A stretch of DNA of 63,895 nucleotides, filler included, from Octopus bimaculoides (lineage: Eukaryota), in assembly GCF_001194135.2 (NCBI RefSeq). It is 6 parts of 5 records of this genome, joined end to end, with 100 filler letters (N's around TTAATTAATTAA, not from the genome) between each part and the next. Parts side by side here need not be neighbours in the genome. Positions count along the whole stretch, not along the records: positions 1 to 15,741 come from NC_068987.1; positions 15,842 to 22,852 come from NW_026342171.1; positions 22,953 to 37,620 come from NC_068991.1; positions 37,721 to 40,289 come from NC_068986.1; positions 40,390 to 62,651 come from NC_068987.1; 1 more part is not named here. The stretch is one strand, 5' to 3'. The translations under genes and the position numbers were made by a program. Of the stretch, positions 4,689 through 54,812 are shown piece after piece. The notes under the pieces were generated by a model. The model was not told where the DNA came from. It ran no database searches and saw only the letters and a list, made by a program, of their open reading frames with translations. Position 1 is the first letter of the stretch. Every line of letters begins with the position of its first letter.

Positions 4689-5865
4689 AATTAATGTAGA
4701 CTTAACTTGTATTCAATATTTCGGGTTTATGAACACATTTTCAAGAAATTAACGAATGTTGCCGATGTGCGTATGTGTGAGAGTGTCTGGAGTGGACATG
4801 CGCGGAAAAGTGCTGCTATAGCAACCAGTTAGCCTCCTGTAACTCTCTTCTGTTGTTGATCTTAGGTTTCTTTTGGTGTATGAGGATTATCTCAGAGATT
4901 CTAAGGTTGCCCCTGTTCCGTTGTGTTGCTGTGATGTGCACTGTGAATTCCCGGGTCTGGTATTTCCGTAGACATTTATTTACAGAAGTGTCTGCCAGCA
5001 TGTGTTCCTTAATGCGTATATGCAGTCCTCTTCTTGTGCATATTATGTAGGATGCGTCACATTTGCCACAGATGATCTCGTAGACAAGATAGGGCCTCTG
5101 GTACAATTCAGGGTCATTGATGGGGTAGTTCTATAGTGTGCACTCCTTGGAGTACTGAGAGGTTTTGTTCCTGGATAGAGCTTTTCTCAGTGAAGGGTCG
5201 GGGTGCACTATCGTTATACCGATTCCTTCCCCGTGGACTGCGTGTTGCATCGCTGCAGTTGTTCTGTCGTCAAAGTATGGTAGCTTGAGGAAGCACGTAC
5301 CGGACTTGGGAGTATGATGGTTCTTCCGGGGTTTATTGACCCTGGTGTTCTTTAGGCGCCGTTGTTTATTTAAAGATGGTGGGTAACCATTCAGCGTTAG
5401 GTCTCTGAGGAACTGTTTGGTGTTCACGACTTCGTCGGCCACGTTGCTGCAATTCTTATTTATACGTGCAATCTCGTTTCTCACGTACGAGGCTTTGTCT
5501 CAGATGGATAATGCTGATTAGTAGTGGACGAGGAGTTTTCTATTAGCGGCTTTTTTGTACAATTTGGTAAATATGCAGCCTTCCTTTGTGATCTTGAGTT
5601 AAATGTCGAATAGAGAGAGGGTTCCGGATTCGTTTCGATGTTCAATCTCGAATTTCATGTTTGTCAGTGTTATTGAAGGTCCGGTGTATGTTAATGGCCT
5701 CATCCCTGGAGGACGTGATGATAAGGATGTCATCAACATACCTGGAGAAGAAGATGCATGAGCAGCAGGTGTTGAGTGCTGTGCACATCGGCAACAGTCG
5801 TTAATTTCTTGGAAATGAGGACCATAGTCCCGAAATATTGAATACAAGTTAAGTCTACGTTAATT
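4689..5865. repeat. 82/83-bp inverted repeat pair (4689-4770 and 5783-5865) bracketing the PLE relic
   Basis: The reverse complement of 4689-4770 aligns to 5783-5865 (GCACATCGGCAACA.TCGTTAATTTCTTG...CCCGAAATATTGAATACAAGTTAAGTCTAC.TTAATT), roughly 85-90% identity by eye. Confidence 0.9.
4771..5782 (-). mobile_element. Penelope-like element relic (RT C-terminus + GIY-YIG endonuclease), frameshifted
   Basis: Minus-strand frames give FFSRYVDDILII, MKFEIEH..GTLSLFDI, VRNEIARINKNCS..LNGYPP, LKLPYFDD, LVYEIICGKCDASYI..TRRGLHIRIKEH and EIILIHQKKPKIN. Confidence 0.9.
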
Positions 5866-7910
5866 AGCATTGTTCTGCCCTTACCCACGATCCTTTATAC
5901 AATACAAACTACAAACACACACACACACACGTACACACACACACACACACACACAAATATATATATATATNNNNNNNNNNNNNNNNNNNNNNNNNNNNNN
6001 NNNNNNNNNNNNNNNNNNNNNNNNNNNNNNNNNNNNNNNNNNNNNNNNNNNNNNNNNNNNNNNNNNNNNNNNNNNNNNNNNNNNNNNNNNNNNNNNNNNN
6101 NNNNNNNNNNNNNNNNNNNNNNNNNNNNNNNNNNNNNNNNNNNNNNNNNNNNNNNNNNNNNNNNNNNNNNNNNNNNNNNNNNNNNNNNNNNNNNNNNNNN
6201 NNNNNNNNNNNNNNNNNNNNNNNNNNNNNNNNNNNNNNNNNNNNNNNNNNNNNNNNNNNNNNNNNNNNNNNNNNNNNNNNNNNNNNNNNNNNNNNNNNNN
6301 NNNNNNNNNNNNNNNNNNNNNNNNNNNNNNNNNNNNNNNNNNNNNNNNNNNNNNNNNNNNNNNNNNNNNNNNNNNNNNNNNNNNNNNNNNNNNNNNNNNN
6401 NNNNNNNNNNNNNNNNNNNNNNNNNNNNNNNNNNNNNNNNNNNNNNNNNNNNNNNNNNNNNNNNNNNNNNNNNNNNNNNNNNNNNNNNNNNNNNNNNNNN
6501 NNNNNNNNNNNNNNNNNNNNNNNNNNNNNNNNNNNNNNNNNNNNNNNTATATATATATTACTTTAATCCTTCGAGAGAAATATATAGCCGAAATTATAAT
6601 TGAGAGTGGCAACTTTAATCAAACCACTATTTTGAAATCGCAAGTGCGGGAAATGTTTTCAAACATCAAAATTATGCTCCATAAATATTCAGTTTTCCCA
6701 GAGAACATCAGTGTTTTGTTTAAATACAAACTTAACCCGAAGGACATGGTTTCCTTTTCTATTTTAAATTTTATCTTTTAAAGTTTTTCTCATATCGTTT
6801 TTAGACCATGTAAATGAGCGCTGAGACATTTAAATGTTTGTTTTTAATTTCTTCCGTTTTTATTATTTTTTAAATGTTTGTTTGTTTTATTTTAAACTGC
6901 TTTTAAATTCGAATTAAACATTTCTTCTCTAAACAAGTATTTCAGATTCCTTAAAAAAAGGTGAAGAAAAATTAAGAGAAAATGTTACTGTTGTTTTATA
7001 TAAGCTTCAGGAATTTTCTGATCTGGCAAGCTGACATACAACCACTTGCAAATATATTTGCTTCTTTTTTTATCAACGTTGTCTTGATATTTTCCTAACG
7101 AAATTACTTACATCCTATGAATCATTTCCACTAGCCATACGGAGATACTATATTTCAGATATTTCAATCATTATAAATCCCGAAAATACTTTATAGTTCA
7201 TATATATTTCGATACAGTATGGTGCAGGGGTGTAACCAACTCTTCTACAGCTTTAGAGAAAGAAGTATCAAGCAGGTGTAATAATTAATCACTAGCAGCA
7301 CAGAGACTCAATTCAGTCTCAGTTGCTATTAGATCCAATAATAATCCGTCTAGATCTAGAATAAGTGTGTATCACACACAGGTCACTGTCAATCAGTAAA
7401 TATTGTATTCGTTTATACGTGAGTCACTAACGATAAAGACGTAATGTAAAATGTTTGAAGCGAGTAGTCATTGATTTGAGGTTTTGGCTTAACAATCTGT
7501 TGTTAGCAGGATGGATATAATTATCTATCAATGGCTTCGTTGCTGTTTTTAACACTTTTCATACTGTCGATTCTAAATTCTGTTTTTACCACAATCAATC
7601 AATGTAAATTTAAGGAGCAAAGAGTTCATGAAAATTTTCTGCTGTCATCTCAAGCACACTTATCAGTGACTTTGAAGAACTAAACACACAAAATGAAAAT
7701 AAACATTTTCATCCACCATTTCCAAATATAATACACTGTGGAATGATGATTGAAAAAGAAGTGAGGGTAGTCATAGAATATAAATGCTTCCGACACGTGA
7801 AATGAGCTTTGATAGCTACGGGAGCCTTTGTCATACTTAGCCTTGGATTGCAAAACAAAAGGAAGTATTCTATGTATACATATGAGCAATAGAAAATCTC
7901 TGATGAATGT

Positions 7911-8007
7911 AATGAGTATTGGCTACATAGAAGCACAATGGGTATTGGCTACATAGAAGCACAACCAGTTTGTATCCTATCTACAAGAGATAAGATACAA
8001 ACTGGTT
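7911..8007. repeat. 26-bp tandem duplication directly followed by a 20-bp-stem hairpin
   Basis: Units 7911-7936 and 7937-7962 differ at 1 position. Arms 7963-7982 and 7988-8007 have 1 mismatch, with loop ACAAG. Confidence 0.9.
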
Positions 8008-8250
8008 TGGAACCTTCAGATTTTCTACACTGATTATAAATTCACATGTTATACCAATAATAATTGGTAGAGTTATCTATGTTATTACATGTCCAGATAA
8101 TTTCAAAAATCTCCAATTTTTAAGCAAAGAAAGAGACCGGCTAACATGAAACTTACAGATATCAATAGGTGAGTGGAACAGTGGAAATATGCACCATTTT
8201 CATCAGACTTTACCATTATTCTTGTCTTAGTATAAATTCCAGTGAAACTA

Positions 8251-53438: not shown

Positions 53439-53554
53439 CTGGATAAGAGAATAGAACTTAAGTACTCTTCCTAGCTTCATAGATAGCTATTTCTGGATTG
53501 GATAGTATCTTATAATCCTAATTGTTTTATACCCATTTATCTCCTATTGAATCT

Positions 53555-54055
53555 TGTCACGGTCCATGTCATCTGGTATACACGAACAGTGCACAAAGCA
53601 AACAAGCCAATTTAGTTGGTGTGTAATTTTTTTACACTTTGGACCATGGACATTTTATCATGCTACTAGCATTACAGAGGTTGTCAATGACCAGACCAAA
53701 GAATTCATTTTACCCTGCCCTCCTAGATGGGTAGCTTGTGATGTAAAGGGTAAAGACCCCCCTTCGGTCATACCCTCTGAGGCACAAGTCTGAGTAAGGT
53801 TCTTTATAGAAGACCAGCAGTCGCCCATGCATACCAGCCTCCTCTCTCTACACCACTGATATTGTCCAAGGAAAAGGCAAAGGCTGATACAGCTTGGCAC
53901 CAGTGATACCGCAGCTCATTTCTACAGCTGAGTGAATTGGAGCAATGTGAAATAAAGTGTCTTGCTCAAGAACACAACACACAACCTGGTCTGAGAATTG
54001 AACTCATTACCTCATATTTGTAAGCTGACACTCAAACCACTCAGCCATATGCTTT
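53555..54055 (-). mobile_element. tRNA-headed SINE family E with an RTE-like 3' tail
   Basis: Head TGGCTGAGTGGTTTG..GAGTTCAATTC, core GTGTTCTTGAGCAAGACACTTTA, tail GCATGGGCGACTGCTGGTCTTC..GAAGGGGGTCTTTACC. Confidence 0.7.
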
Positions 54056-54294
54056 CACTTGTGATGGAGCTTAGTGGTTATATATATATATATATATATA
54101 TATATATATATATACACATACACATACACACACACACACCCTTCCTGCATTTATGAATTCCTTTATGTAGAATATCAACTTATACGGTGCTTATAATTTG
54201 TTTCCAAAATGTTCTCATGCATGCATGCACACACAAATATACACACACACACACACACACACACACACACACCAGAGTAAGTGTATAAATATGA

Positions 54295-54812
54295 AGCAAG
54301 GTGGAAAAAAAATAGTACTTGAACACTGGAGGTAGAGTAAGATGCTTTATTAAAAAAGCTGCAGATAGAAAGAGAGAGAGATAGTTTTATTTCTTTATTT
54401 GCATTACTATCTCTGTATCTGCTTACCTGGATTCCTCTTATAGACGCTCTTTACCCTGTAGCCTTAGTCCTCGGTAAAGATTTCAGAATGTAAGTTCAAA
54501 TCATTTGAGTGCTACTGAATGTTTTCTATATTGAGCATCTTTGATTCTCATTTGTTGAACTCTCTCTTTGTGTACATACACATAAGTAAGTAGATAAATG
54601 CAAGACAAAGTGGAAAAAATAGTACTCAAATACTGAAGGTAGAATGATATGCTTTTCTACTAAAGCTACAAAGACATCACAAAAACTGATACTCAGAGTT
54701 TCCCGTTCCTCTTTGTGATCAAGAATTCTTGATCACAACTGTCCAACAAACAGAAACATGAAACTCTTGAGTAATAGTTTTTGTGATGTTTTTGCTGCTT
54801 TAATAAAAAAGT
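54295..54812. repeat. Pseudo-LTR-like repeat: direct duplicate plus a ~160-bp fold-back centred on a perfect 26-bp palindrome (54713-54738)
   Basis: TTGTGATCAAGAATTCTTGATCACAA is a perfect palindrome. Arms ~54650-54712 and ~54749-54810 are reverse complements. GTGGAAAAAATAGTACT..GGTAGA recurs at ~54300 and ~54610. Confidence 0.85.

Follow-up and report, generated by a model that had tools for sequence, protein, structure and literature searches.

A probable tRNA-headed SINE family with Penelope-type ends among the hammerhead-bearing repeats of Octopus bimaculoides

Four repeats with hammerhead ribozyme (HHR)-like tails were analysed in a 63,895-nucleotide stretch of Octopus bimaculoides DNA (assembly GCF_001194135.2), composed of six parts of five records joined by filler and referred to below as the window. 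All four loci are likely products of a Penelope-type reverse transcriptase (RT): two truncated Penelope-like elements (PLEs), a short repeat with a PLE-type tail, and a copy of a tRNA-headed SINE with a tail resembling a PLE pseudo-LTR (pLTR). The last of these, at 45 kb, is likely a SINE family copy and was likely copied by a PLE protein, since it combines a Pol III-type head with PLE-type ends. On balance, we lean towards a scenario in which this Pol III-transcribed family, which counts many thousands of copies and occurs in two or more octopus-type species, has a PLE and not a LINE as its partner, having taken over the pLTR tail, the minimal hammerhead and both RT start sites; its inverted arms would seed double-stranded RNA for A-to-I editing.

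Hammerhead-like motifs and truncated Penelope-like elements

An earlier note on this DNA had placed four hammerhead-like motifs at 4.7/5.8, 34.7, 45.2/45.4 and 54.7 kb, and every stem III string was located there:

4715-4722 (-) and 5832-5839 (+): stem III string GAAATATT, site A
34752-34761 (+): stem III string GAAAGTACTA, site B
45226-45233 (-) and 45456-45463 (+): stem III string GAAACATT, site C
54760-54773 (+): stem III string GAAACTCTTGAGTA, site D

A strict HHR descriptor gave 2 matches in the window against a mean of 0.075 in 40 shuffles (maximum 1); these are the only two of the seven motif copies that have the exact CUGANGA core, at 34727(+) and 45261(-). Relaxed descriptors allowing one core mismatch (7 matches against a null mean of 2.7, maximum 7; 4 against 1.0, maximum 3) were dropped as evidence. 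The core, GAAA and UH cleavage site of a minimal type I HHR are present at site B and in both the main copy and the family of site C, while site A carries a U3/A8 variant core and family D a U4C variant. The window copies at sites A, B and D are predicted to fold without the full HHR shape, and Rfam returned neither a hammerhead nor a tRNA for the whole window and two sub-stretches. No pile-up of read starts or ends was seen for families C and D in RNA runs, whose fragmented libraries are unlikely to show any; the Anolis element likewise lacks such pile-ups.

Site A is a truncated PLE; both the minimal HHR and the inverted arm that it carries have been published as features of PLEs:

5642..5800 (-): end of the PLE RT with a YVDD motif, 5'-truncated, frame broken (translation; Pfam RVT_1)
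4816..5499 (-): PLE linker and C-terminal GIY-YIG endonuclease, with a stop inside (translation; Atlas; tblastn)
4712..4747 (-): main tail, minimal type I HHR-like motif, core UUGAAAA
5783..5865 (+): inverted arm at the 5' truncation point

The order is that of EN+ PLEs, namely a YVDD fragment, which stays under the Pfam RVT_1 cut-off (E 0.0011, 19.2 bits against 29.6), followed by a GIY-YIG-like ORF. For the latter, Pfam gave no match, the best Atlas matches were eukaryotic GIY-YIG clusters (score 0.96), and tblastn gave a weak match to a PLE protein (E 0.007). The main tail has stem III AUAU, a 3-bp stem I and a decayed stem II; its core at 4738-4744(-) is the published U3/A8 variant, also given for Schistosoma_mansoni(4) (PMC4209133 supplement). 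Since this variant alone is at chance level in the window (2 matches against a null mean of 2.25), support for the motif comes from its position behind the GIY-YIG ORF. The inverted 5'-truncated copy at the 5' end, an optional feature of PLEs, is present, with its core decayed to TTGGAAA.

Site B is also a truncated PLE with a minimal HHR of the published type:

34063..34497 (+): C-terminal GIY-YIG domain of a PLE (protein and tblastn matches)
34722..34766 (+): tail with a minimal HHR (strict descriptor match)

Its class was assigned by the GIY-YIG match, the RT part lying outside the window: 55% identity (E 1.5e-30, HMMER) to P0002, a 698-aa RT plus GIY-YIG protein, and E 3e-33 in tblastn. 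The HHR has the core CUGAAGA, a 5-bp stem II, stem III AGUACU and a stem I with one mismatch. No inverted arm of this tail was found in the sequenced bases; the 5' side is an N gap (33891-34000). Searches of PDB and of longer proteins with the endonuclease fragments of sites A and B gave no match. The combination of HHR and inverted arm on PLE fragments is already known. Of the "recurring module" proposed earlier, what stands is that the minimal HHR tails and the inverted arms are both of PLE type; with PLE fragments making up two of the four repeats, the module is largely published PLE architecture (PMC4209133; 10.1101/2021.04.23.441226).

Site D consists of two facing arms, and a further copy of its family lies nearby:

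54587..54722 (-): left arm, tail up to the long 3' end, with an 11-nt deletion over the core region
54729..54806 (+): right arm, to about the short 3' end, HHR-like motif at 54737-54779
54265..54363 (-): second family D copy, tail only, 74% over 99 bp

The right-arm core is decayed to CCAACAA, and the family reads restore CCGACGA, a U4C core accompanied by a perfect 6-bp stem I and a 3-bp stem II. The intact core expected for the family consensuses was recovered at 45 kb (CUGAUGA) and replaced by this variant at 54.7 kb. The family D 3' ends fall into two classes (54587/54594 and 54661), as is typical of PLE tails. No remnant of an RT/GIY-YIG ORF was found for site D in the window, and upstream of stem I the family consensus is lost within a few bases. 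The 54.7 kb repeat, earlier suggested to be a non-autonomous partner of a PLE, may be a short PLE remnant.

An inverted copy of the tail, claimed for three of the four repeats, was found at sites A (83 bp, 89%; 4689-4770 / 5783-5865), C (86 bp, 95%; 45175-45260 / 45429-45514) and D (71-96 bp, 75-82%; centre 54723-54728). Inverted tails were also commoner than in other repeats of the window, as had been anticipated: three of the four HHR loci had a nearby inverted arm against none (one if a 67% pair is counted) of 28 other repeat intervals (Fisher p 0.0008-0.003), a count biased by the fact that arms helped in the choice of loci. Another inverted pair, at 35858-36347, is without an HHR and was not counted with these loci. 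The inverted arms were ruled out as dimer partners of the HHR within one transcript because they lie on the opposite strand.

The probable SINE family at 45 kb

The site C locus comprises the following features:

45142..45413 (-): main copy, ~270 bp, with tRNA-type head, AAT run, body, HHR and tail (sequence; body and tail also by family depth)
45399..45409 (-): Pol III A box, one mismatch to the consensus from PMC8969392
45355..45365 (-): Pol III B box, decayed, 33 nt past the A box (consensus comparison)
45221..45266 (-): minimal HHR, cleavage predicted after 45226 (strict descriptor; family data; fold)
45142..45173 (-): optional 3' extension, ~31 nt, on the main copy and not on the inverted arm (two family 3'-end classes)
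45416..45514 (+): inverted arm, opening with 12 nt that mirror the head, then skipping to the HHR core and on through the tail to the short end
45133..45141 (+): target-site duplication, left copy, 9 bp, TTGATTATT
45518..45526 (+): target-site duplication, right copy, 9 bp

The element has several of the properties that define a SINE (PMC3531059), being under 700 bp, non-coding, dispersed and high-copy, with a target duplication. Its head carries A and B boxes at the right spacing; it gave no match to tRNA models (ARAGORN, also with relaxed thresholds, and Rfam), and there is no family depth over it. The mirror copy of the A box at 45418-45428(+), TGGCATAGTGG, matches the consensus exactly, a box pair arose by chance in 2 of 2000 shuffles of the element, and the four A/B pairs in the window all resemble SINE heads. 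An Atlas search with an antisense frame across head and tail gave no usable match. The HHR comprises a 5-bp stem I, CUGAUGA with an extra A, a 5-6-bp stem II, GAAA and stem III ACAU (ACGU in the family), with stems I and II both in the predicted fold (z -1.74). The inverted arm at 45.4 kb has the core GTGATGA and no 5' strand of stem I. The long end belongs to the main copy and the short end to the inverted arm, as described for PLEs. The two outward-facing ends and the target duplication enclose the head, and the inverted arm opens with its mirror image, so that the inserted cDNA likely included the head. The head-tail join, which spans the AAT run at 45312-45335, is seen in this one copy because the family depth covers body and tail, the head being masked as a repeat and hence at zero depth.

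Body and tail of the family were recovered in 27,347 and 26,588 contig pieces from two species (runs X1 and X15). Among the loose ends, two are best supported: the long 3' end at 45142/45144 by 254+89 contigs in X1 and 315+94 in X15, and the short one at 45167/45173 by 152+167 and 199+183. Past both ends the flanks are unrelated and AT-rich (agreement 0.40-0.45), and neither end is followed by a poly(A) or simple-repeat consensus. The spacing of ~31 nt matches the optional 30-40 bp tail and the two RT start sites of PLEs. At the short end, the number of copies of a 9-nt unit is variable, which is also the case for some LINE-type tails. On the other side, the loose-end consensus extends at least to ~45308, up to the AAT run, with depth dropping toward the 5' side, in part as an edge effect of the masked stretch.

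The proposal that the ACAT stem III derives from ACGT proved correct, ACGT being the family majority with 79% and 80% of DNA depth in the two species. Three letters are frequent at core position N7 (A>G 10%/31%, A>T 12%/8%), variation of 3% or above is possible at no more than one of the five core adenines (X1; counts by kind of change), and G12 shows a CpG mutation in 9-11% of depth. Variation on a subfamily scale is not limited to N7, being found at 45172 and 45188 too; no compensatory stem changes were seen among the 40 of 97 variant rows listed. Opposite-strand joints make up 4 of the 15 joints listed (64 in total), each at a different breakpoint, and give no per-copy rate, since contigs break in repeats. 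Joints in X15 from 45278 or 45285 back to 45142 (joint kind not given) probably mark partial tandems. RNA reads on the family fall on both strands without bias and are probably derived from host transcripts.

An autonomous PLE with the family C tail was not found in the window, whose three other tails are unrelated to it. Exact scans for the tail gave no hits in metagenome contigs and prokaryote genomes, which are uninformative as non-octopus collections, and a 16-nt piece of the hammerhead had no match in an O. vulgaris annotation supplement. Instead of the simple-repeat 3' tail and partner LINE of a classical SINE, family C has two unique-sequence ends and non-consensus flanks; the element works like a SINE and is for this reason not filed as a classical LINE-dependent one. 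Nor does it consist of tandem HHR units, as non-LTR retrozymes do: site C is a monomer with an inverted arm, and contigs hint at partial tandems.

Proposed mechanism and rival explanations

The earlier idea that PLE machinery mobilises non-autonomous partners, a tRNA-headed SINE included, is likely to hold at 45 kb, where one head-tail copy bears on it, and is less clear for the possible PLE remnant at 54.7 kb. By analogy with the Anolis Poseidon protein (PMC11167929), the SINE RNA would be made by Pol III, and a PLE RT-endonuclease would bind the tail downstream of the HHR and nick AT-rich DNA. Reverse transcription would then begin at either of two internal sites ~31 nt apart, and priming on both strands would yield a long-ended main copy head-to-head with a truncated, short-ended inverted arm. 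As the copies read through the cleavage site, the template would be uncleaved or re-ligated RNA, and the HHR is probably not needed for insertion itself. Its cutting is predicted only with the aid of a protein or in a dimer, which would form through the palindromic stem III, either in trans or between tandem copies.

A rather doubtful alternative, which still deserves weight, is that the head-tail join at 45 kb is a one-off or rare chimera, made by an RT that switched to a tRNA or SINE RNA or by a tail that landed beside an AAT-tailed SINE; the abundant tail would then be an ordinary PLE pLTR end or a headless derivative, and all loci PLE debris. The join was indeed seen once, across an AAT run, PLE endonuclease favours ATT, and family depth declines toward the 5' side. 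However, the drop is partly an edge effect and the family sequence reaches at least ~45308 at that run, while the position of the head within the arms and the target duplication, together with its mirror in the arm, excludes a simple later or adjacent insertion, though not a template switch. We find it unlikely that a real SINE family was moved by a LINE, such as RTE or CR1, with the HHR tail as a captured PLE passenger. SINEs are by definition LINE-dependent, Octopus vulgaris has active LINEs, RTE and CR1 among them, and the 9-nt unit at the short end varies; against this, neither 3' end has a poly(A) or simple-repeat consensus, head-to-head arms and a pair of ends that lie ~31 nt apart and differ by a unique extension are reported as specific to PLEs, and the other SINE-type repeats in the window lack nearby inverted arms.

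Still less probable is that the 45 and 54.7 kb families are retrozymes spreading from tandem arrays via HHR-cut circular RNAs, with dispersed copies as by-products. Metazoan retrozymes of 170-400 nt do have type I HHRs and are proposed users of PLEs, Sm-alpha operates from tandem copies in the available text of its reports, and the X15 joints probably reflect partial tandems. Yet the window copies are monomers with inverted arms, their HHRs are of the minimal PLE type and not the canonical retrozyme type, and the family C ends lie 52-84 nt beyond the cleavage site and not at it. It is hardly credible that the motifs arose by chance in AT-rich DNA and that the arms reflect generic rearrangement or faulty assembly: relaxed descriptors match shuffles as often as the window, Rfam gave no hammerhead and the assembly has many gaps, but the excess of strict matches and the position of two motifs directly behind PLE endonuclease ORFs speak against it, arms diverging by 5-25% are unlike a read or assembly duplication, and the better pairing of the family majority letters at 45 and 54.7 kb largely refutes it.

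Relation to known systems

Octopus tRNA-derived SINEs of three families were reportedly described by Ohshima and Okada in 1994, and site C may already be catalogued among them. One octopus family, OR2, has been termed a CORE-SINE (PMC4758252). In the papers searched, we found no ribozyme or PLE link for octopus repeats and no description of a SINE moved by a PLE. Precedents exist both for non-autonomous derivatives of PLEs and for SINE-like, tRNA-related elements that carry an HHR (schistosome Sm-alpha). By definition, SINEs travel with LINEs (PMC3531059), and trans-mobilisation by PLEs has been proposed for retrozymes on the basis of co-occurrence and pLTR homology. If our reading of family C is true, PLEs would have a clear natural substrate in this short and highly abundant Pol III element with its PLE-type ends, which would delimit the RNA signal needed by the PLE protein to ~150 nt and directly suit the published in vitro PLE assay. 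Its thousands of copies would allow statistics on inverted-arm formation and on selection for the hammerhead, the latter being probably dispensable for insertion, and repeat libraries may file the 45 kb family under the wrong mechanism.

Sites A and B belong to the PLEs, in which RT precedes GIY-YIG and the minimal type I HHR combines a palindromic stem III with an additional base behind A9 (10.1101/2021.04.23.441226; Frangieh et al. 2024, PMC11167929). Also in common with PLEs are the U3/A8 variant, opposite-strand HHR pairs, the inverted 5'-truncated arm, the optional 30-40 bp tail and AT-rich or microsatellite targets. Site C differs in its Pol III A/B-box head, which stands where a PLE has its ORF, and site D in its U4C core, 9-10 nt stem III and ends ~70 nt apart as against 30-40. 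Schistosoma Sm-alpha and Sj-alpha, as far as the available text of their reports goes (PMC2770079, PMC6765202, PMC8490949), resemble site C in being short, tRNA-related, Pol III-type and high-copy, with a type I HHR; they are described as tandem arrays whose cleavage releases units carrying the promoter at the 3' end, and that text names no partner element or PLE-type ends. Site C, in contrast, is dispersed and monomeric, runs head first, and combines a minimal HHR with two 3' ends and an inverted arm. The available parts of the work on metazoan non-LTR retrozymes (PMC7229834; 10.64898/2026.07.22.740005) present them as non-coding, proposed PLE users that have sequence in common with pLTRs; they are defined there by tandem units and circular RNA, with no tRNA head described. 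The non-autonomous Chlamys PLEs, such as MRC1 (10.1101/2021.04.23.441226), are likewise non-coding and proposed users of PLEs, and they are without HHRs.

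Hammerhead motifs and inverted arms at four sites

The window is an animal-type scaffold, rich in microsatellites and with many gaps. The anatomy of its four sites is directly observed. All of the stem III strings reported in the earlier note were found in place, and at three of the sites the tail bearing the hammerhead ribozyme motif (HHR; the main copy) has an opposite-strand near copy, or inverted arm: 83 bp at 89% identity at site A (4.7–5.9 kb), 86 bp at 95% at site C (45.1–45.5 kb) and 71–96 bp at 75–82% at site D (54.6–54.8 kb). The observation made in that note thus stands. 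A strict descriptor, requiring CUGANGA without change, at least 4 in stem II and four of five stem I pairs, matched only site B (34.1–34.8 kb) and the main copy at site C, whereas 40 block shuffles averaged 0.075 matches and never gave more than 1; the standard core is therefore present in just two of the seven motif copies as they stand. Relaxed descriptors gave counts on the window at or near chance when compared with shuffles, and Rfam returned zero hammerhead matches there at E up to 1.

Near inverted arms (at least 40 bp, within 1.5 kb) accompanied three of the four HHR loci versus none of 28 merged intervals from four other repeat groups (Fisher p 0.0008), or one of 28 when a 67%-identical pair was counted (Fisher p 0.003), in a small sample whose HHR loci are biased by the way they were noticed.

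Other repeats were also recorded. An inverted pair of 92 bp and 86% identity (35858–35949 / 36256–36347, 307 bp apart) lies in unique, CpG-richer surroundings, with no HHR found. By eye, ORF fragments at 8953–9489 and 47683–48562 (minus strand) resemble Tc1/mariner transposases, and 11310–11675 (plus strand) resembles a LINE-like reverse transcriptase (RT) fragment with a YADD motif. Local direct duplications, ~350–390 bp apart, occur at 14283–14424 / 14636–14779 (145 bp, 86%) and 38960–39012 / 39352–39403 (53 bp, 98%).

Penelope-like fragments at sites A and B, and the family at site D

Judging by their coding remains, sites A and B are fragments of Penelope-like elements (PLEs).

Site A coding region, minus strand: RT end with YVDD, linker and GIY-YIG-like domain, as read from the translation

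The site A RT end matched Pfam RVT_1 at E 0.0011, below the cut-off, while the GIY-YIG-like domain reached 0.96 to eukaryotic GIY-YIG clusters in the Atlas. The core of the main tail, UUGAAAA, is the U3/A8 variant of the minimal HHR found in PMC4209133, and the point of truncation is where the inverted arm begins. A search with the GIY-YIG domain of site B gave 467 relatives with E no higher than 0.001; four of the seven scanned carry both RT and GIY-YIG domains, and one relative, at 55% identity, is a 698-aa protein with both. An intact CUGAAGA motif lies ~230 nt past the stop of the site B GIY-YIG ORF. One PLE fragment of the window had a single protein match, labelled Octopus vulgaris (75% identity), which makes an octopus the likely host.

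Minimal HHR pairs on opposite strands, 100–700 bp apart, already appear in PMC4209133, and Craig et al. (10.1101/2021.04.23.441226) described PLEs with an inverted truncated copy plus a 30–40 bp tail at one end, so that the combination of HHR and inverted arm at sites A and B is known. The earlier note had read the four repeats as one recurring, PLE-driven module; at A and B this amounts to established PLE architecture, and what goes beyond it lies almost wholly at site C, likely a Pol III passenger with a PLE-like tail.

A fifth PLE fragment (62750–63895, minus strand; tblastn E 0.002) has broken linker and GIY-YIG frames and assembly-type duplications flanking small gaps; its tail showed no HHR up to the gap at 62708–62751.

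The left arm and centre of site D, mapped with four sequencing runs, gave 890 and 598 contig pieces. Its family motif, built from loose-end consensuses (20 and 15 contigs) and the majority letters at 54689 (91–92%) and 54703 (55–57%), comprises a perfectly paired stem I of 6 bp, the U4C core CCGACGA, a stem II of 3 bp closed by a GGAA loop, and ACTCTGAGT as stem III. The window copy, CCAACAA, is explained by CpG decay of this core. Natural hammerheads can tolerate U4C. The 3' ends at 54587/54594 lie next to TG/CA repeats, and that at 54661 next to TA repeats. Since the consensus weakens on the upstream side of stem I, site D may be either what is left of a PLE or an element that is non-autonomous.

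Anatomy and family of the site C element

45142–45413, minus strand: site C main copy, with A box, B box, AAT run, short body, minimal HHR and 84-nt tail

The B box is decayed and lies 33 nt past the A box, and both agree with the Pol III consensus and spacing in PMC8969392. Shuffling the element 2000 times produced such a pair twice; four A/B pairs are present in the window, all SINE-head-like (mean 0.75, maximum 5 in 20 shuffles). Neither ARAGORN nor the Rfam tRNA model matched the head, so the label "tRNA-derived" rests on the A and B boxes. The three further heads, at 25002 (plus), 32391 (minus) and 54047 (minus), belong to two other abundant families and have neither HHR nor near inverted arm. 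Just upstream of the site C HHR, the family-majority body at 45278–45284 (minus strand) reads GGTTCGA, letters 1–7 of a B box; this is possibly a second promoter remnant and possibly chance.

The main copy was mapped with four of 24 listed runs, covering DNA of two species, plus RNA. The family is very large: 27,347 and 26,588 DNA contig pieces (not copy numbers) in the two species, and 8,200 and 6,752 RNA reads. At position 45228, C accounts for 79% and 80% of the DNA depth, which makes the family stem III ACGT and bears out the earlier guess that ACAT derives from it. In the core, three letters are common at N7; variation amounts to ~1% of DNA at U4 and, through CpG decay, to 9–11% at G12. 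No compensatory stem changes occurred among the 40 listed of 97 variants.

In site C RNA, A>G and T>C sites were in excess (16 and 25 in X21 versus 3 and 4 in X1, DNA), other changes being similar, in a comparison of different individuals where a few loci may dominate the RNA; this fits A-to-I editing of inverted-arm duplexes. Examples are 45275 (24% versus 0.3%) and 45237 (17% versus 0.1%). Such an excess, seen on both families (45138–45297 and 54573–54710), is consistent with A-to-I editing on both strands, including positions inside the HHR.

Probable mobilization of site C and known systems

Most likely, PLE-type target-primed reverse transcription acted at all four sites, with site C being a Pol III passenger with a PLE-like tail. 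Pol III would transcribe the element, a PLE protein would bind its RNA and priming would take place on two strands, while the HHR might cleave as a dimer. The inverted arm was ruled out as dimer partner, because the arm and the motif, if transcribed together by read-through, would anneal, leaving the motif blocked.

The main rival, a one-off chimera joining head and tail, seems to us unlikely. The head was masked as repeat in read mapping, so that depth covers body and tail and the head–tail link comes from the window copy alone; in that copy, the first 12 nt of the inverted arm mirror the head before the arm jumps to the HHR core, and the complete unit sits between the two copies of a 9-bp direct repeat (TTGATTATT). 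Ranked after it, a LINE-driven SINE appears quite improbable. The best-supported loose ends fall into two groups in both species, 45142/45144 and 45167/45173 (343 versus 319 and 409 versus 382 contigs; a further 832 rows lie beyond), each bordered by unrelated AT-rich DNA; in the window, the main copy ends long and its inverted arm short. Strand-switching joints numbered four among 15 listed of 64, each at a different place. According to Frangieh et al. (PMC11167929), the PLE protein begins reverse transcription at two internal sites, setting an optional tail, nicks at ATT and uses uncleaved RNA as template, and the PLE HHR cleaves only with the protein present. Overall, the interpretation in the earlier note is partly supported, as to PLE-type ends and the Pol III passenger at site C, where almost all of the value of the finding lies, hinging on the head–tail link.

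In the literature searched, mostly at listing level, we found neither a dispersed tRNA-headed SINE described as having PLE-type ends nor an octopus SINE described as carrying a hammerhead, and "ribozyme" was absent from the octopus repeat papers term-searched; subscription papers, Repbase, Dfam, the 1994 octopus SINE paper and bioRxiv supplements lay outside this scope and may hold a prior description. Among known systems, tRNA-related SINE-like elements with HHRs are on record in schistosomes (PMC2770079, PMC6765202, PMC8490949), and PLE-dependent non-coding elements have been proposed in the form of retrozymes (PMC7229834, 10.64898/2026.07.22.740005) and MRC1 (10.1101/2021.04.23.441226).
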